From sequence record OK254198.1: a DNA stretch of 64,000 bases. One strand, written 5' to 3'. The notes under the pieces were generated by a model. That model searched no databases, was not told the origin of the DNA, and worked only from the letters and a program-made list of their open reading frames with translations. The position numbers and the translations under genes are program-made. This document shows, piece after piece, positions 55,439-62,930 of this stretch. This DNA is from Escherichia phage PSD2001. The first letter of the stretch is position 1; each line of letters begins with the position of its first letter.

Positions 55439-56998
55439 ATGAAAAAGAATGCATTAGTTCAAAAATGGTCCGCTCTGTTGGAAAACGAAGCTCTTCCGGA
55501 AATCGTTGGTGCTTCTAAACAAGCTATCATCGCTAAAATCTTTGAAAACCAGGAACAAGATATTCTGACCGCTCCTGAATACCGTGACGAAAAAATCTCC
55601 GAGGCATTTGGTTCTTTCCTGACCGAAGCTGAAATCGGTGGTGACCATGGTTATGATGCTACCAATATTGCTGCTGGCCAGACCTCTGGTGCAGTAACTC
55701 AGATTGGGCCGGCAGTTATGGGCATGGTTCGTCGTGCTATCCCGCATCTGATTGCGTTTGATATTTGCGGCGTACAGCCTCTGAACAACCCGACTGGCCA
55801 GGTATTTGCACTGCGTGCAGTATACGGTAAAGACCCTGTCGCTGCTGGTGCTAAAGAAGCTTTCCATCCGATGTATGCTCCGAACGCTATGTTCTCTGGT
55901 CAGGGCGCTGCTAAGACTTTTGAAGCACTGGCTGCAAGCAAAGTTCTGGAAGTTGGTAAAATTTATTCTCACTTCTTCGAAGCAACTGGTTCCGCGCACT
56001 TCCAGGCTGTTGAAGCTGTAACCGTTGATGCTGCTGCTACTGATGCTGCTAAACTTGACGCTGAAGTTACCAAACTGCTCGAAGCTGGTAAGCTGGCTGA
56101 ATTGGCTGAAGGTATGGCTACCTCCATCGCCGAACTGCAAGAAGGTTTTAACGGTTCCTCTGATAACCCGTGGAACGAAATGGGCTTCCGCATCGACAAA
56201 CAAGTTATCGAAGCTAAATCCCGTCAGCTGAAAGCAAGCTACTCCATCGAACTGGCACAGGACCTCCGCGCTGTTCATGGTATGGATGCTGATGCCGAAT
56301 TGAGTGGTATTCTGGCTACCGAAATTATGCTGGAAATCAACCGCGAAGTTATCGATTGGATTAACTACTCCGCACAGGTTGGTAAATCTGGTATGACCAA
56401 CACCGTTGGCGCTAAAGCTGGTGTGTTTGACTTCCAGGACCCGATTGATATCCGTGGTGCTCGTTGGGCTGGTGAAAGCTTCAAAGCTTTACTGTTCCAG
56501 ATTGATAAAGAAGCCGCTGAAATCGCTCGTCAGACCGGTCGTGGTGCAGGTAACTTCATCATCGCTTCCCGTAACGTAGTTAACGTGCTGGCTGCTGTTG
56601 ATACTTCTGTTAGTTATGCTGCTCAGGGTCTGGGTAAAGGTTTCAACGTTGACACCACTAAAGCTGTGTTCGCTGGTGTTCTGGGTGGCAAATACCGTGT
56701 CTATATCGACCAGTATGCTCGTGCAGATTACTTCACCATCGGTTACAAAGGCGCTAACGAAATGGATGCTGGTATCTACTACGCACCATATGTTGCACTG
56801 ACCCCGCTGCGTGGTTCTGACCCGAAAAACTTCCAGCCGGTTATGGGCTTCAAAACCCGTTACGGTATCGGTATCAACCCGTTTGCTGACCCTGCTGCTC
56901 AGGCTCCGACCAAGCGCATTCAGAACGGCATGCCGGACATCGTTAACAGCCTTGGCTTGAACGGTTACTTCCGCCGCGTATATGTTAAAGGAATTTAA
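55439..56998 (+). CDS. 23: Major capsid protein gp23
   Basis: 519 aa; long identical stretches to T4 gp23 (e.g. 'AIIAKIFENQE', 'GYDATNIAAGQTSGAVTQIGPAVMGMVRRAIP'). Confidence 0.97.
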   Translation: MKKNALVQKWSALLENEALPEIVGASKQAIIAKIFENQEQDILTAPEYRDEKISEAFGSFLTEAEIGGDHGYDATNIAAGQTSGAVTQIGPAVMGMVRRAIPHLIAFDICGVQPLNNPTGQVFALRAVYGKDPVAAGAKEAFHPMYAPNAMFSGQGAAKTFEALAASKVLEVGKIYSHFFEATGSAHFQAVEAVTVDAAATDAAKLDAEVTKLLEAGKLAELAEGMATSIAELQEGFNGSSDNPWNEMGFRIDKQVIEAKSRQLKASYSIELAQDLRAVHGMDADAELSGILATEIMLEINREVIDWINYSAQVGKSGMTNTVGAKAGVFDFQDPIDIRGARWAGESFKALLFQIDKEAAEIARQTGRGAGNFIIASRNVVNVLAAVDTSVSYAAQGLGKGFNVDTTKAVFAGVLGGKYRVYIDQYARADYFTIGYKGANEMDAGIYYAPYVALTPLRGSDPKNFQPVMGFKTRYGIGINPFADPAAQAPTKRIQNGMPDIVNSLGLNGYFRRVYVKGI

Positions 56999-57020
56999 TC
57001 CTAGATTAAGTTAAATAAAA

Positions 57021-57049
57021 AGGGACCCTTGAGGTCCCTTTCTTGTTTT
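57021..57049. terminator. Bidirectional intrinsic terminator between gene 23 and the minus-strand small gene
   Basis: AGGGACC-CTTGA-GGTCCCT hairpin flanked by A-run and T-run. Confidence 0.8.
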
Positions 57050-57330
57050 CATACCATACCATTTAAATGAACTTCTACCCGGCGCTTGATGAGGTCTCTG
57101 AAGTTAACATTGTTTTCTTGAAGTTTCAACCAGTTACCATTTTTATCTTTAGTGTGAGTAGAATAATTACCATTCCACCAGAAATCAGTGTCATATGCTA
57201 AGTTTTCATATTTTTTAACTAATTTGTTCAGAGCATTACCATTAACACCATTTGGGTATTTGTTGACCAATGCAATAACTTCAATTTCCAATTTTTTAAA
57301 GGTGTTCAGAAGGAAAGTTGATTTGTTCAT
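57049..57330 (-). CDS. Hypothetical early protein inserted between genes 23 and 24
   Basis: 93 aa ORF; PeSS upstream, terminator downstream; T4 has segD here. Confidence 0.55.
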   Translation of the reverse strand: MNKSTFLLNTFKKLEIEVIALVNKYPNGVNGNALNKLVKKYENLAYDTDFWWNGNYSTHTKDKNGNWLKLQENNVNFRDLIKRRVEVHLNGMV

Positions 57331-57404: not shown

Positions 57405-57440
57405 TTTATAAATAAAGTATATCACAAAAGGAAAGCGCAA

Positions 57441-58721
57441 ATGGCAAAGATTAACAAATTACTGCGCGAGTCAACTACCACTACCAGCAACTCCTTGGGC
57501 CGCCCGAATCTTGTTGCTTTGACCCGCGCTACAACCAAATTGATTTACCGCGATATTATCGCTGAACAACGTACGAACCAGCCAGTTGCGGCTCTGTACG
57601 GTGTTAAATATCTTACTCCTGATAATGAATTCAGTTTCCAAACTGGTGCCGTTTATGGTGGTGAAGTTGGTTCTAAAGACCGTGAAACTATCCCGGAATT
57701 TACAACCCCAACTCAAGCCGTAGCTAAAGGTGGATACATTAAATTCCAGAATATCGTTTATAAAGCTCTGGTTGATAATCCATTTGCATCGACTACCGAA
57801 ACTGTATTATCCGATGTTCTGCAAGAAGGTCTTATTGCATTAACTATTCGTTTGGTTCCTGATGCGGCGCACACCGAGAAATTTGAAGCCGGGGATGTTG
57901 AGATTAGTAATGCTGTATTCCAGGTCAACAAATGGAATGCTCCGGTTAAAACACGTAAATTGAAAACTGCATTAACTGTTGAGCTTGCTCAGGATATGGA
58001 AGCAAATGGGTTTAATGCTCCTGCTTTCCTGGAAGACTTGCTTGCCACTATTATGGCAGATGAAATTAACAAAGATGTTCTTCAGTCTCTTATTACCGTT
58101 TCCAAGCGTTATAAAGTAACTGGTGTTTCTGACAATGGCGTCATCGATTTAACATATGATGCAGCTCCAGAAGGCGCACGTAAACTGTACGAACTAGTTT
58201 GTGAAATGAACTCCGAGATTCAGAAAACTACATCTTATTCCGGTACCTTTGTTGTTGCCTCTAGCCGTGTTGCTGCTATGTTGGCTGGCTCTGGCTGGCT
58301 GAAACATAAACCAGAAGATGAACAATGGCTTCCTGAAACAGCGTACGGTTATTTGATTAATGGCCTCCCTGTATTCTGTGATGTTAACAGTCCATTAGAT
58401 TATGTAACCGTTGGCGTTAAAGAAAATTACGGCGGAAACGAAGTCGTAGGCTCAATCTTCTATGCTCCTTATACCGAAGGTCTGGACTTAGATGATGAAG
58501 AGCATGTAGGCGCGTTTAAGGTCATTGTGGACCCTGACAGTTTGCAACCAGCTATCTCTTTGATGGTTCGTTATGCACTTTCAGCTAACCCGTACACCGT
58601 TGCTAAAGACGATAAAGAAGCTCGTATTATCGACGCAACCAATATGGATTTAATGGCCGGTCAGAGCAATATGTCTTATCTGCTCGGTGTTAAACTTCCG
58701 CCAATCATTTATGAGGCGTAA
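57441..58721 (+). CDS. 24: Capsid vertex protein gp24
   Basis: 426 aa; 'MAKINKLLRESTTTTSNSLGRPNLVALTRATTKLIY' matches T4 gp24; gp23-like fold. Confidence 0.95.
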   Translation: MAKINKLLRESTTTTSNSLGRPNLVALTRATTKLIYRDIIAEQRTNQPVAALYGVKYLTPDNEFSFQTGAVYGGEVGSKDRETIPEFTTPTQAVAKGGYIKFQNIVYKALVDNPFASTTETVLSDVLQEGLIALTIRLVPDAAHTEKFEAGDVEISNAVFQVNKWNAPVKTRKLKTALTVELAQDMEANGFNAPAFLEDLLATIMADEINKDVLQSLITVSKRYKVTGVSDNGVIDLTYDAAPEGARKLYELVCEMNSEIQKTTSYSGTFVVASSRVAAMLAGSGWLKHKPEDEQWLPETAYGYLINGLPVFCDVNSPLDYVTVGVKENYGGNEVVGSIFYAPYTEGLDLDDEEHVGAFKVIVDPDSLQPAISLMVRYALSANPYTVAKDDKEARIIDATNMDLMAGQSNMSYLLGVKLPPIIYEA

Positions 58722-60005
58722 ATGCAAAAGATTAACGCACTAATTCACGAATCAACATTAACGGCGGCCAACCAGGTCGCCCGTCCTAATTTACTTTCTT
58801 ATACTCAGGCTACGAATAAACGAATTTTTAAAGCGCTCGTGGCTGAACAGAAAACTACCCAGCCTGTTGCTGCGTTGTATGGTGTTCGTGTTCTGAACCC
58901 AGATGATAAAATGACTTATCTTGGCGGAGCAACATTTGCAGGTCAGATTGGTATGTTCGAGCGTAAGAATATCCCAGAATTTACGAACAAAGACGAAGAT
59001 TATGCAGTCGGTGATATGTTCCAGTTTGAAAGTGTTGTGTTCAAAGTTTTGGAAGCATCACCATTCGCCGGGACTCTCGAAACTGATTTGGGTGAAGTTA
59101 TTTCTGAAGCCATTGCGGCTGGCCATATAAGAATGATGTCAGATGCAGCTTTCACTGATAAATTTGAAAAAGGTCATCCTGAAATTGCTGAAGCTGGTTT
59201 TCGTATTGATAAATGGCAGACTGAAGTTAAATCCAGAAAGCTGAAAACTTCTTTAACTGTTGAGCTTGCTCAAGACCTGGAAGCAAACGGTTTCGATGCA
59301 ACAGACTTCATCGATAATATTCTCGGCATTCAAATGGCAGAGGAAATTAATAAGGATGTACTGCAATCCCTTATTACTGTCAGTTCTCGCTTCAAGGTGC
59401 AAGGTGTTTCTGAAAAAGGTGTATTGAATCTAACTGACCCGAAATATGATAATGCTCAGGACCGTGCGCGAACCCTGTATTATTATATGTGTGAAATGAA
59501 CTCTGCAGTTCAACGTCAGACTTCGTTTGCTGGCACATATGCAGTCGCTTCTTCCCGTTGTGCAGCTATTTTAGCAGCTTCTGGTTGGGTTGAGAAAAAG
59601 GAAGACCAGGATGAATTAGCCTATGGCGTTCTGAAGAACGGTTTACCACTTTATGCAGATATGAATAGTCCATGTGATTATGTTATTGTCGGTGTAAATG
59701 CTGATATGGGTGAAGGTCAGACGGTCGCATCTTTGTATTATGCGCCTTATACGGAAGGTCTTAGCGAAGTTGATGATGAGGGTGATACCTCGGTCGGGGA
59801 ATTCAAGGTTATTGTTGACCCTGAAAGCTTGCAGCCTACTGTTGCGCTATTAGCTCGTTATGCATTGACAGCGAACCCTTATACGGTTGCGAAAGATGAT
59901 AAAGAAGCTCGCATTATTGATGGTGCTGATATGGATAAGATGGCTAACCAAAGCCAATTGAGTTCTTATCTTGGTGTTAAACTTCCACCACTGGAAAAAG
60001 AATAA
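58722..60005 (+). CDS. Capsid vertex protein gp24 paralog (tandem duplicate)
   Basis: 427 aa; colinear with upstream gp24 but diverged; starts 1 nt after its stop. Confidence 0.9.
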   Translation: MQKINALIHESTLTAANQVARPNLLSYTQATNKRIFKALVAEQKTTQPVAALYGVRVLNPDDKMTYLGGATFAGQIGMFERKNIPEFTNKDEDYAVGDMFQFESVVFKVLEASPFAGTLETDLGEVISEAIAAGHIRMMSDAAFTDKFEKGHPEIAEAGFRIDKWQTEVKSRKLKTSLTVELAQDLEANGFDATDFIDNILGIQMAEEINKDVLQSLITVSSRFKVQGVSEKGVLNLTDPKYDNAQDRARTLYYYMCEMNSAVQRQTSFAGTYAVASSRCAAILAASGWVEKKEDQDELAYGVLKNGLPLYADMNSPCDYVIVGVNADMGEGQTVASLYYAPYTEGLSEVDDEGDTSVGEFKVIVDPESLQPTVALLARYALTANPYTVAKDDKEARIIDGADMDKMANQSQLSSYLGVKLPPLEKE

Positions 60006-60027
60006 GGGCCTTGCGGCCCTTTTTTTT
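60006..60027 (+). terminator. Intrinsic terminator after second gene 24
   Basis: GGGCCTTGCGGCCC hairpin + TTTTTTTT. Confidence 0.8.
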
Positions 60028-61033
60028 ATTCACTAACTAATGCAATCCAAACGTGTCTTAATGTTTCTCTTACATTTGCGATGAGTTGCTTTTTAACTTC
60101 AACAGGATTTTCCGCCAGGGTCAATTCAAGGCCTTCGCGCCCGGCTTCTTCCAGAATATCTTGAACTGTTAGCCCCATTACCTTTCCAAAATCCTTCGGT
60201 GTTACTTCCCCAATTTTACTGATAACATTGTTGATACGGTTAACAGTCACATAATCAGTGAAATTCCACAGTAAATCCATATCATTTTGGCTCAGAACCA
60301 CTGCAGCCTTAATAGGCTTATCAGACTTTTTCTTTTCACTGAATTTAGAGTTCTTACATTTAATCGCTACACGCTCGCCGTTAGGTAACCATGCAGGAAC
60401 ATCAGGTTTTAATACAAATCCTTCAGCAGTGAATACTTTACCTTCCACCTTTGCATCAAAATCAGTGGTATTTGCTGTAGTCAATCCTGCGTTATCCACT
60501 GTAAAATTGTAATCAGGGACCACAGAATCCAGGTCATTAGGTAGCTTAATTAATTCTTCAAAACTACCTGTAGCCAGGCGCGGGGCAACTTTAAACTTAT
60601 GAATAATACAAAAGGCTTCCATAAGTGTGTCAGTCAGGACGGATTCAGAGCCATCTTCCTTAGTAACGCGGATATCAAACACATAGAAATCTTTATCGCC
60701 GTAATTCACATTCTTCTGAATACCTGTACCAGCAAACTCACCATAAATCTGATATGCCTGATAATTAATATCCTGCAAAAGTTTCTGCACAGATTTAATA
60801 GAATCTGCATAGTTCTTTAATACAATTTCATAACCATAGAAATCTTCTGCAGGTAGGATAGGTCCAGTGCGTTTCGCACATGTCACATTGTCTTGTTCAA
60901 TGATTAATGAAAAGTTGGTACCATGAATCTTCTCGCGAGCTACCCATTCACCGCTGGTGAAGCCTTGCAGGCGAATCTTTTCAATGAACTTGTTGTTATA
61001 GTGATTTTCAAGGCTGTTGTATTTCTTAAACAT
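60026..61033 (-). CDS. rnlB: RNA ligase 2
   Basis: 335 aa; '[19 protein letters not shown]...[12 protein letters not shown]' incl. ligase motif I K-x-H-G. Confidence 0.95.
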
Positions 61034-61772: not shown

Positions 61773-61799
61773 AGGGACCCGAAGGTCCCTTTTTAATTA
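61773..61799. terminator. Bidirectional intrinsic terminator downstream of hoc
   Basis: AGGGACC-CGAA-GGTCCCT hairpin flanked by A-run and T-run. Confidence 0.8.
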
Positions 61800-62930
61800 A
61801 TAAACGTAATCGTATATAATACCAGCTTCTAAAGCGGTGCGATGAATAATTCGACCATTACGAGATTCTTGTACATCAACCTCTGGATAGTCGGTAATCA
61901 TTTTTTGAAGGGTATATCGGTGCAAATAATACGGGCTATCTGGAGCATCAGTTTTCCAGTCTTGTCCAGCAAGAGTCATTTTCTGAATTTCGTCCATAAC
62001 CCACCAACCACACCAGATATAAGCTGAATTACGAACTGGCAGCGGATGAACGTAAGGTAATTCGCCATCTGGAACAGGTGCTACTTTAGCTGTGATAGTT
62101 ACATTACCAGTTTTTGTGACAGTCGCCGGGTTATAATCTGTAGCAGATACAACAACAGAAACTTCAATTACCTGTGAACCTTCAGCGCTTGTATCGATTG
62201 CTAGAGTATCCGTGGTGCCAACTACAGGAGAACCGTCTTTCTTCCAAGAATAGGCAAAAGTAGCTCCACTCGGTGCGCCAACTACATCTGCTTTAAATGA
62301 AGCTAGGGTGTCTTCCGGAACATTAATCGAAGCTGGGGTTAATGTCACAGAAACACCTGTCATAGTTTTCTTAACAAAAGTTACCGCAGCTCCTTTAGTT
62401 GCGGTGCCATTATTATAATCGGGTGCAGAAACAGTAACTTCACAGTTCAATGTATAATTTGCTTCTGCTGATTCGGTAACAGTAATAGTTTTACCGGTTT
62501 GACCTGGGATTACGCTAGTGTTACGTTTCCAAACATAAGCGATTGTTGCACCAGAAGGAGCGCCTGTCACGTTAGCAGTAACAACTTGAGATTGCCCCAC
62601 TTCTTTAGTAACAGAGGCCGGGTCTAAAGTCAATGTAATAGCAGGCATTGTTTTATTCTGGATAGTTAAAGTTGTCTCAGCTTCAGCTGTTTCTGGTTCG
62701 CCGTCCGCTGGTGTAGTTGTTGCAACAACTTTAATAGTCTTACTGCCTGCTGGACCAACAGCAATATAATCCATTGCAGCAGTCACAGAAGATTGAGGAA
62801 CGCCATCAACGGTCCAGACAAATGATTCGGTACCTTCAGCTGCAGCACCAGAACCGGTCGCAGTGAAATTGGTTGTTGCTCCAATAACGGCCGTAGCCGC
62901 CAAAGGAGCAATAGTTACGGTATAAGCCAT
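61797..62930 (-). CDS. hoc: Highly immunogenic outer capsid protein Hoc
   Basis: 377 aa; Ig-like repeats; C-terminal capsid-binding 'ELPYVHPLP...YIWCGWWVMDEIQKMT...YYLHRYTLQKM' as in T4 Hoc. Confidence 0.9.
   Translation of the reverse strand: MAYTVTIAPLAATAVIGATTNFTATGSGAAAEGTESFVWTVDGVPQSSVTAAMDYIAVGPAGSKTIKVVATTTPADGEPETAEAETTLTIQNKTMPAITLTLDPASVTKEVGQSQVVTANVTGAPSGATIAYVWKRNTSVIPGQTGKTITVTESAEANYTLNCEVTVSAPDYNNGTATKGAAVTFVKKTMTGVSVTLTPASINVPEDTLASFKADVVGAPSGATFAYSWKKDGSPVVGTTDTLAIDTSAEGSQVIEVSVVVSATDYNPATVTKTGNVTITAKVAPVPDGELPYVHPLPVRNSAYIWCGWWVMDEIQKMTLAGQDWKTDAPDSPYYLHRYTLQKMITDYPEVDVQESRNGRIIHRTALEAGIIYDYVY

Follow-up and report, generated by a model that had tools for sequence, protein, structure and literature searches.

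A conserved tandem pair of diverged capsid vertex genes in one late operon of a Gaprivervirus-type coliphage

Escherichia phage PSD2001 (OK254198.1), of which we analyzed a 64,000-nucleotide stretch (the window), carries a tandem pair of diverged and intact genes for the capsid vertex protein gp24 within one late operon. The window belongs to a Gaprivervirus-type coliphage and is 98% identical at the nucleotide level to Escherichia phage 212. Our best reading of this arrangement is that genes 24-I (copy 1) and 24-II (copy 2) would encode two co-expressed, specialized vertex proteins. As a whole explanation we favor, with modest confidence, a conserved late operon producing two specialized vertex paralogs that would both occupy corners of the head, most likely as separate homopentamers.

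A sequence-only reading of this region had described two full-length, colinear gp24 homologs of 426 and 427 aa, and our analysis bears this out. The two ORFs on the plus strand run exactly from 57,441 to 58,721 and from 58,722 to 60,005, with no internal stop in either. Both belong to the Gp23/gp24 HK97-fold family (PF07068), with scores of 326 and 327 bits for copies 1 and 2, respectively (cut-off 24.4), and both match residues 1–424 of the solved T4 gp24 (1YUE), with 650 and 497 bits, respectively, while gp23 chains score ~50 bits. The two proteins align with each other end to end, with 56% identity (E = 5e-174), and the genes are 61% identical at the nucleotide level. For a coarse fold match only, we used a low-confidence AlphaFold2 single-chain model of copy 2 built from a 33-sequence alignment (pLDDT 59, pTM 0.49). 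In a Foldseek search with this model, T4 gp24 chains were the best matches (E from 1e-37 to 1e-33, TM 0.57–0.66), followed by gp23 (E = 1e-18). That the pair follows gene 23 back to back, as also proposed, is true of the two copies, which abut each other, but not of gene 23, from which the pair is separated by a 442-bp spacer (Table 1).

Table 1. Coordinates of the gene 24 pair and its expression signals in the window
Feature	Position	Strand	Description
Stem-loop terminator 3' of gene 23	57019..57041	+	Also scored on the minus strand (57043-57017) in the terminator scan
T4-type late promoter box TATAAATA	57407..57414	+	Ends 26 nt 5' of the copy 1 start codon
Shine-Dalgarno AAGGAAAG of copy 1	57428..57435	+	Conserved among related loci
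Gene 24-I (copy 1)	57441..58721	+	426 aa, T4-type capsid vertex protein; 70% identity to T4 gp24 (BLASTP), in a clade with T4 gp24
GAGG Shine-Dalgarno of copy 2	58713..58716	+	Within the final copy 1 codons, 5 nt before the ATG of copy 2
Gene 24-II (copy 2)	58722..60005	+	427 aa, vertex protein of a distinct deep paralog clade; 55% identity to T4 gp24 (BLASTP)
Intrinsic terminator GGGCC-TTGC-GGCCC, then T8	60004..60029	+	Directly 3' of copy 2; closes the two-gene late unit

The divergence between the two copies is old, because their synonymous sites are saturated (dS ~2), their nucleotide identity lies between 49 and 74% in all windows of the alignment, and their longest common exact word is 20 nt. 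The same three observations rule out a recent duplication or gene conversion, and the saturated dS, together with the 56% protein identity, upholds the earlier claim that the copies are clearly diverged and that the duplicate is not recent. Purifying selection on the two copies is strong, with dN/dS of 0.03–0.07 for copy I and 0.03–0.08 for copy II; between the window and phage VR7, the values are 0.051 and 0.029, respectively. The bare fact of a one-gene tandem repeat might evoke an assembly artefact or a decaying pseudogene, and we give this practically no credence, since it is already refuted on several counts. The identity levels are not those of an assembly repeat, the copy 2 ORF is intact, homologs at least 80% identical occur in ~106 phage records and in many independent metagenome assemblies, and the dN/dS is not that of a pseudogene. 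Nor is copy 2 a relaxed, fast-evolving duplicate. Copy I distances among 13 two-copy genomes are correlated with those of copy II (Mantel r = 0.75, p = 1e-4). For the same pairs of genomes, copy II has diverged at ~0.74 times the rate of copy I, and the two copies are equally far from outgroups.

The organization of the locus points to a single transcription unit. The 442-bp spacer contains a terminator and a 93-aa ORF on the minus strand (57049–57330). Since this terminator is predicted to work on both strands, it would also end the minus-strand ORF, and it is predicted to set the gene 23 transcript apart from the gene 24 unit. Late promoter boxes like the one upstream of copy 1 occur 19 times in the window when 5.2 are expected, a count reached in none of 100 shuffles, and an identical box lies at the identical position in VR7, Bp7, SEA1, T4, a JD18-like phage, and metagenome relatives. 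The TAA stop codon of copy 1 (58719–58721) directly abuts the ATG of copy 2 (58722), leaving no intergenic spacer, and the tatGAGGcg motif that includes the copy 2 Shine-Dalgarno is conserved at the junctions of Gaprivervirus, Dhakavirus, and Gelderlandvirus. Scans for late boxes and terminators found neither between the copies; copy 2 uses the promoter of copy 1. A hairpin equivalent to the one that closes the unit is present 3' of copy II in all related loci, as it is 3' of the single gene 24 in T4. This layout is the same in 13/13 inspected loci, i.e., the window and 12 others, which cover four ICTV genera and six metagenome contigs. Since a single late promoter and a single terminator enclose the two genes, which have no spacer between them, and the ribosome-binding site of copy 2 lies within the 3' end of copy 1, joint late expression of the two genes is expected.

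As a sequence observation, the pair is not new, because it has already been annotated and published in several genera. GenBank records of Gaprivervirus, Dhakavirus, and Gelderlandvirus label it 24(1)/24(2), 24a/24b, or vertex protein I/II, and Roskildevirus records list two capsid vertex proteins. Annotated pairs include 24(1)/24(2) in VR7, capsid vertex protein I/II in VR5, VR20, VR25, and VR26, 24a/24b in JS98, JS10, and IME08, and head vertex protein I/II in S16, STML-198, STP4-a, Melville, and CGG4-1; gp24 pairs are also found in the Erwinia phages Cronus, IT22, and FBB1. The Melville genome announcement states explicitly that the capsid vertex protein is duplicated in tandem, as it is in S16 (PMC6486254). 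These annotated pairs are orthologous to the pair in the window and share its gene order and its junction, at which the genes abut or overlap; for VR7, identity to the window is 95% for copy I and 98% for copy II. None of these GenBank records or papers assigns separate roles to the two copies. What is new here is 1) the definition of a distinct gp24-II clade, 2) the constant abutting order and the shared promoter and terminator, 3) the selection and evolutionary rates of the two copies, and 4) the kept protease motif and the clustering of the gp24-II-specific changes.

We wondered how widespread gp24-II might be. Homologs at least 80% identical to gp24-II of the window are present in the ~106 phage records mentioned above, i.e., ~8% of the 1,415 records with a full-length gp24 homolog. 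These two-copy records span at least four genera and include therapeutic coliphage and Salmonella phage candidates. In tblastn searches, every record with a gp24-II at least 80% identical among the rows sampled had three gp23/gp24-type matches, and gp24-II was the sole vertex gene in 0/13 inspected loci, copy I always being directly upstream. A Jiaodavirus whose flanking regions share ~85% identity with those of a two-copy contig lacks gp24-II, which is thus dispensable at the level of the lineage. Moreover, single-copy and two-copy phages are interspersed in both the gp23 tree and the gp24-I tree. An old lineage that has diverged in step with gp24-I, gp24-II has not been found without it, yet fairly close relatives may differ in having gp24-II or not; in this sense, gp24-II behaves as an accessory to gp24-I.

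This distribution bears on an alternative in which the two paralogs are interchangeable, either one building all eleven vertices, with the second retained for use in certain hosts or conditions or as a safeguard against a host factor or defense directed at one vertex protein. Several observations are in keeping with it: T4 and other single-copy phages need only gp24-I, genomes ~85% identical in their flanks differ by gain or loss of gp24-II, two-copy phages are mixed with single-copy phages in the gp23 and gp24-I trees, and vertex composition in T4 alters resistance to acid and digestive conditions (PMC10580926). However, we consider it unlikely. gp24-II is the sole vertex gene in none of the 13 loci, and each gp24-II record among the tblastn rows sampled has three gp23/gp24-type matches. 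Furthermore, the shared promoter and the translational linkage leave no obvious route to alternate use, and changes that are fixed throughout the gp24-II clade at positions otherwise at least 90% conserved suggest a different role rather than the same one.

These changes became apparent when gp24 sequences were compared across phages. In a neighbor-joining tree, gp24-II (25 representatives) is monophyletic with 100% bootstrap, while T4 gp24 and all copy-I genes form a 76-member clade with 98% bootstrap that leaves gp24-II outside. As judged from this tree, the I/II split is no younger than the separation of T4 from the two-copy phages. Twelve positions at which at least 90% of the other gp24s in the comparison agree are changed and fixed in gp24-II, which gives the signature (in T4 numbering) S26, N32, R34, F36, R56, V57, G68, V261, F267, N328, Q335, and Y415. 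Copy 2 of the window has all 12 of these residues, while copy 1 has the T4-type state at 11 of the positions and, at position 328, a K that is near-universal in other gp24s (V in T4). Residues 21–70 hold 7 of the 12 gp24-II-specific changes but only 18 of the 130 conserved sites common to gp24-II and the other gp24s (at least 90% conserved in each group), a significant difference (Fisher p = 0.001). By this measure, the copy II-specific changes concentrate in the N-arm and in linker 1 of the I-domain. Copy 2 also has three small indels, with three extra residues after ~239, four missing at ~292–300, and three extra in an acidic loop near 353.

How the second gene arose is a separate matter. 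Rather than being copied in place from the resident gene, copy II could have come as a foreign gp24 from another, deeply divergent line of T4-like phages; unequal recombination during co-infection would have set it beside the resident gene, and recombination would then have spread it. This scenario concerns origin only and is compatible with any of the proposed functions. We regard it as possible but doubtful. It would account for the position of gp24-II outside the clade of T4 gp24 and every copy I (98% bootstrap), for the fact that 4 of the 12 signature residues (S26, N32, R56, and F267) are the states found in Krischvirus, Pseudotevenvirus, and Slopekvirus gp24, for outgroups being equally far from copy I and copy II, and for the indel polymorphism of 24-II and a neighboring ORF between related genomes. 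However, no lone gp24-II-type donor was found in 2,322 matching phage records, nor was one present among the 120 listed of the best 150 public genome and metagenome protein matches (E ≤ 1e-30). Across genomes, the distances for the two copies vary together, as joint vertical descent would predict. Quartet site counts for gp24-II (5–6 vs. 4 and 1–2) are too few for a firm placement, and neighbor-joining can misplace a long stem. A Jiaodavirus-type donor, hinted at by 63–68% identity to Klebsiella phage gp24, was not supported, because JD18-like gp24 is 63.6% identical to copy I and 63.3% to copy II and the sister grouping obtained only 27% bootstrap. We rejected the idea that the single gp24 of JD18-type phages is a hybrid produced by unequal crossover between I and II. 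In these proteins, the ends are nearer to copy I and residues 101–175 are nearer to copy II, but the gp24s of Acinetobacter, Yersinia, and Serratia phages share this regional pattern, which is therefore ascribed to region-specific rates.

The location of the gp24-II-specific changes is informative because, in T4, gp24 residues 11–29 and the I-domain linkers are contact elements within and between capsomers (PMC9546572). The T4 gp24 propeptide is cut after residue 10 (Glu10) (PMC9546572), and the corresponding prohead-protease motif [L/I]-x-E|S is present at residues 8–11 in both copies, as LRE|S in copy 1 and IHE|S in copy 2. The motif is kept in 25/25 gp24-II representatives, and cleavage is predicted from it. 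This has to be weighed against the notion that gp24-II has departed from the vertex role and become an assembly factor, acting in prohead initiation or as a trigger for the gp21 protease, or else occupies a non-vertex position in the shell. Such a departure would be consistent with substitutions and three indels in contact elements (N-arm, linker 1, and the acidic loop near 353), and a regulatory split is conceivable since, in T4, the protease is believed to be activated when gp24 attaches to the prohead (PMC9958956). Nevertheless, this seems improbable to us because gp24-II is full length and colinear with residues 1–424 of the solved gp24, with no domain loss; it has 130 positions at least 90% conserved in each group in common with all other gp24s; it retains the propeptide cleavage motif; and it evolves more slowly than gp24-I, as expected of a lattice component with many contacts.

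In the reading that we prefer, with two specialized vertex proteins, gp24-I and gp24-II would be made together late in infection and both incorporated at the eleven pentameric corners of the prolate head; a mixed vertex composition is plausible on the sequence evidence. The sequence-only reading had taken the two paralogs to imply mixed or alternative vertex composition, which is reasonable and would fit their predicted co-transcription, the purifying selection on both, the retained protease site, and the lack of any case of copy II without copy I. Because the gp24-II changes are concentrated in two elements, the N-arm and linker 1, that in T4 touch other subunits of the pentamer and adjoining hexamers, the two proteins would most likely sort into separate homopentamers. 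The corners of the virion would then be of two kinds, which may sit at geometrically different positions. A gp24 should still be required at the vertices of this phage, since gp23 of the window has the wild-type T4 residues N381, A387, and K420 at the positions of gp24-bypass mutations, and we accordingly rejected a bypass-24-type gp23 that would make gp24 dispensable. Counting against a two-protein head, T4 and many of its relatives make complete heads from gp24-I alone. In T4, all 55 gp24* subunits are similar in conformation (PMC9546572). A structural requirement for two types of vertex is not known. Neither the literature searched nor the PDB yielded virion proteomics, a knockout, or a structure for any two-copy phage, and the GenBank notes of VR7, S16, and JS10 contain no proteomic evidence. 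We hold a more specific version to be rather speculative, in which two distinct types of pentamer would be sorted via the N-arm and linker 1 to non-equivalent vertices and gp24-II would be an optional stabilizing module that is gained and lost. Candidate sites are, for example, the apical vertex opposite the portal vs. the ten shoulder vertices, or a portal-proximal vs. a portal-distal ring.

The comparison with T4 places the pair in a familiar context. Like the copies in the window, T4 gp24 (1YUE, 5VF3, and 7VRT) is a protein of ~427 aa with an HK97-type fold and an insertion domain, and it has a 10-residue N-terminal propeptide ending in L-x-E (I-x-E in copy 2). In T4, too, gene 24 is found downstream of gene 23, and it has a late promoter of its own and a hairpin terminator after it. 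However, T4 has one gene 24, as the sequence-only reading had correctly stated, whereas the window phage has two in one transcription unit, and copy 2 differs from T4 gp24 by its 12 clade-specific substitutions and three small indels. Gene 24 is itself the product of a duplication of gene 23, in which an HK97-fold shell protein was copied and the copy then specialized (PMC9958956, PMC10580926). The gp23/gp24 duplication is the same kind of event, one level above that of gp24-I/gp24-II. While gp23 and gp24 share ~20–29% identity and have proven positions in hexamers and pentamers, respectively, gp24-I and gp24-II share 56% and have only putatively different positions.

T4 is the reference model for the assembly of prolate capsids, with one vertex protein at eleven vertices. 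Sorting of two pentamer types to different corners, if true, would be a new level of positional specialization among the capsid proteins of a tailed phage. Provided that the shell contains both proteins, the make-up of the vertices would be a tunable trait that could alter the stability of the capsid, its antigenicity, and its use for display.

Two full-length gp24 homologs had been proposed from the sequence alone, and the proteins bear this out. Both ORFs, taken from a six-frame ORF list, are intact, and their products, gp24-I (copy I) and gp24-II (copy II), align end to end with 56% identity (E=5e-174) and match Pfam family PF07068 alike. Residues 1-424 of T4 gp24 (crystal structure 1YUE) scored 650 bits to gp24-I and 497 bits to gp24-II, while in the same PDB sequence comparison gp23 chains reached ~50 bits to both. 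By BLASTP, T4 gp24 is 70% identical to gp24-I and 55% to gp24-II, and similarity of either copy to gp23 is weak (28-29% identity over ~250-280 residues). The PDB sequence search returned gp24 structures of the T4 type only. An AlphaFold2 model of gp24-II, of low confidence (pLDDT 59), had T4 gp24 chains as its best structural matches, with gp23 behind. One detail of the description needs correcting, the spacing: the pair follows gene 23 and the two genes abut each other, but a 442-bp spacer, with a terminator and a short ORF on the minus strand, separates them from gene 23.

Over 5.7 kb spanning the pair, the window shares 98% identity with Escherichia phage 212, 95.6% with vB_EcoM_VR20, and 89% with vB_EcoM_VR7, three Gaprivervirus phages, and 83% with the Dhakavirus Bp7. 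In GenBank, the genes are labeled 24(1)/24(2) in VR7, capsid vertex protein I/II in VR5, VR20, VR25, and VR26, and 24a/24b in JS10, and the second copy is 24b in JS98 and IME08. The Gelderlandvirus records CGG4-1, S16, STML-198, STP4-a, and Melville name either head vertex protein I/II or a pair of head vertex proteins. Two capsid vertex proteins are annotated in Erwinia phage Cronus (Roskildevirus), and Erwinia phage FBB1 has two copies as well. Since it is annotated in many records and has been remarked on in print, in the genome announcement of Melville (PMC6486254), the tandem pair is already known as a sequence observation; we found no experimental test of the two products' roles in the literature searched.

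Motif and terminator scans between the copies found neither a late promoter box nor a convincing terminator. Since one promoter precedes two abutting genes, with GAGG inside the end of gene 24-I and a terminator after gene 24-II, the pair reads as a single bicistronic late transcription unit with predicted translational linkage. An equal promoter and terminator flank the single gene 24 of T4. The order gene 23, 24-I, 24-II was found in all 13 two-copy loci inspected, which were drawn from four genera plus six metagenome contigs, with 24-I and 24-II either 0 nt apart or overlapping by 1-4 nt. Across the window TATAAATA occurs 19 times (5.2 expected), lying on the minus strand as far as ~27.4 kb and on the plus strand from ~37.3 kb, in agreement with the orientation switch of T4-type late gene clusters.

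Features of the gp24 region and of comparison loci (window positions unless a locus is named)
Feature	Position	Strand	Remarks
gp23 homolog	55439-56998		519 aa, upstream of the gp24 pair
Hairpin terminator	57019-57041		after gene 23
93-aa ORF	57049-57330	-	between gene 23 and gene 24-I
Sigma-70-like promoter matches	57399-57371, 57356-57329		93-aa ORF region
T4-type late promoter box TATAAATA	57407-57414		precedes 24-I ATG by 26 nt
Shine-Dalgarno AAGGAAAG			between late promoter box and 24-I ATG
Gene 24-I	57441-58721	+	426 aa
GAGG			5 nt upstream of 24-II ATG, within final codons of 24-I
24-I stop TAA	58719-58721		adjoins 24-II ATG at 58722
Gene 24-II	58722-60005	+	427 aa
GC-rich hairpin + T8	60004-60029		after 24-II
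377-aa ORF	61797-62930	-	between 24.3 and the Inh-position ORF
VR7 collagen-repeat ORF	L001 7851-8687	+	place corresponding to the 377-aa ORF
Indel in metagenome contig L011	L011 4474-6546		relative to JIPh_Kp122
ORFs after 24-II, Cronus (L019) and two-copy metagenome contigs (L012-L015)	L019 4327-5842; L012 2676-4506; L013 4890-6427; L014 4812-5546; L015 4826-6341	+	same orientation

The 93-aa ORF, which has a match in phrog_6003 (unknown function) and none in Pfam, is kept in VR7 (ORF190c), Bp7, and phage 212, and an unnamed ORF occupies this position on the minus strand in JS10; in T4 the slot is occupied by the homing endonuclease segD and in KP15 by another homing endonuclease. Downstream of 24-II, Cronus and several two-copy metagenome contigs carry one or two extra ORFs (165-346 aa), annotated in Cronus as "tail fiber protein" and "putative structural protein" and with a faint collagen match in one, whereas the window lacks such ORFs and 24-II is followed directly by rnlB on the minus strand. 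These ORFs could encode additional head-associated proteins tied to the gp24 pair. The slot of the 377-aa ORF is presumably the hoc position of Bp7, SEA1, and phage 212. Since VR7, at 89% nucleotide identity, has there a plus-strand ORF with collagen triple-helix repeats instead, the head-decoration locus beside the pair is, by this comparison, variable inside the genus.

A protein-collection search with gp24-II returned relatives in a graded series. In a neighbor-joining tree of 134 gp24 sequences, rooted on gp24 of Ishigurovirus, Krischvirus, Pseudotevenvirus, and Slopekvirus, gp24-II groups with 24 further representatives in a clade of 100% bootstrap. This clade falls, with 98% bootstrap, outside a 76-member clade uniting gp24 of T4, Karamvirus, Moonvirus, and Kanagawavirus with all copy-I genes of two-copy genomes. 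On this tree, therefore, the I/II split is no younger than the separation of T4 from these phages, the single T4 gene being of type I, and the duplicate is not recent, as the sequence-only reading had held. For the attachment point of gp24-II, a sister grouping with Jiaodavirus and Tegunavirus had 27% bootstrap, and quartet site counts were weak. Since the outgroups share the gp24-II state at 4 of 12 signature residues, gp24-II may be deeper still, or foreign in origin. Foreign acquisition of copy II, as opposed to duplication in place, bears on origin only and is compatible with the functional readings; we consider it rather unlikely.

A gp24-II ortholog at ≥80% identity is present in ~106 of 1,415 phage records with a full-length gp24 match. 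Among the 13 inspected loci and the sampled phage records gp24-II never occurs without gp24-I, while gp24-I is commonly the only vertex gene, and two-copy phages are interspersed with single-copy ones in gp23 and gp24-I trees. Contig L011 and the single-copy Jiaodavirus JIPh_Kp122 are colinear, with ~85% nucleotide identity on both sides of a 2.07-kb indel comprising 24-II and a 239-aa ORF that has no Pfam match. Such a presence/absence polymorphism between related genomes indicates that lineages acquire or lose gp24-II over moderate spans of time.

Both copies are under constraint. Between the window and VR7, copy I has a dN/dS of 0.051 and copy II one of 0.029 (0.066 for gene 23); the corresponding values for Bp7 are 0.070 and 0.052. 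With both genes intact and constrained in this way, the chance that the second copy is an artifact or a pseudogene is negligible. Pairwise distances of the two copies correlate over 13 two-copy genomes (Mantel r=0.75, p=1e-4), copy II diverging at ~0.74 times the rate of copy I; for 9 of the 13 the I/II pairing was deduced from contigs of equal length, with direct confirmation from one of these nine and from a second FBB1-like contig, and the I-then-II tandem also lies on four other metagenome contigs. Distant outgroups are equally distant from both copies, which rules out copy II as a relaxed, fast-evolving duplicate. Within the window, the copies bear no sign of gene conversion between them. 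None of the 25 gp24-II representatives has lost the [L/I]-x-E|S motif at residues 8-11, which corresponds to the site at which the T4 prohead protease takes ten residues off gp24 (PMC9546572, PMC9958956). Since residues 381, 387, and 420 of this phage's gp23, the gp24-bypass positions, are wild type, vertices should still need a gp24-type protein.

Where do the paralogs differ? At 130 alignment positions the same residue is ≥90% conserved in gp24-II and all other gp24s, and 12 positions are ≥90% conserved in both groups yet different between them (A26S, T32N, L34R, Y36F, K56R, Y57V, T68G, I261V, Y267F, K328N, E335Q, and L415Y, in T4 numbering). Residues 21-70 hold 7 of these 12, compared with 18 of the 130 shared sites (Fisher p=0.001). 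Indels of gp24-II add three residues after ~239 and three in the acidic loop near 353, and remove four at ~292-300. In gp24 of the T4 head structures, residues 11-20 extend onto an adjacent hexamer, and residues 26-29 pair with an I-domain linker of the neighboring gp24 subunit within a pentamer; linker 1 covers approximately residues 60-81, and 348-359 form a flexible loop (PMC9546572). Given these contact roles, gp24-II-specific changes fall preferentially in the predicted subunit-contact straps. In the single-copy gp24s of Klebsiella, Yersinia, Acinetobacter, and Serratia phages, compared over T4 residues 1-75, 101-175, and 301-425, both ends resemble copy I more closely, and the insertion domain (101-175) copy II. 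The ends have thus changed in copy II and the insertion domain in copy I/T4-type gp24, and this explains the initial apparent closeness of copy II to Jiaodavirus gp24.

Taken together, co-transcription signals, constraint on both copies, a cleavage motif kept in both, and co-divergence are demonstrable in the sequences, as is an asymmetric dependence in which copy II is only ever found alongside copy I. Both copies are very probably expressed, functional vertex-type capsid proteins. Both would be shell proteins at pentameric vertices, probably forming separate homopentamers sorted by the diverged N-arm and linker-1 contacts, which would give a head with two kinds of corner. The mixed vertex composition that had been proposed for the virion has slightly less than an even chance; for it and functional expression combined, we lean in favor. 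Interchangeable or conditional use of gp24-I and gp24-II, set against the strict co-occurrence of copy II with copy I, is improbable, and an assembly role for copy II away from the vertex, set against its full-length match to T4 gp24, is more improbable still.

The role of the two gp24s is a real and modest question, mildly interesting to the T4 specialist and not surprising. What is new is that gp24-II forms a deep clade of its own, evolves more slowly, and depends strictly on gp24-I, together with the conserved bicistronic layout, the concentration of signature changes in contact elements, and the gain/loss polymorphism between related genomes.
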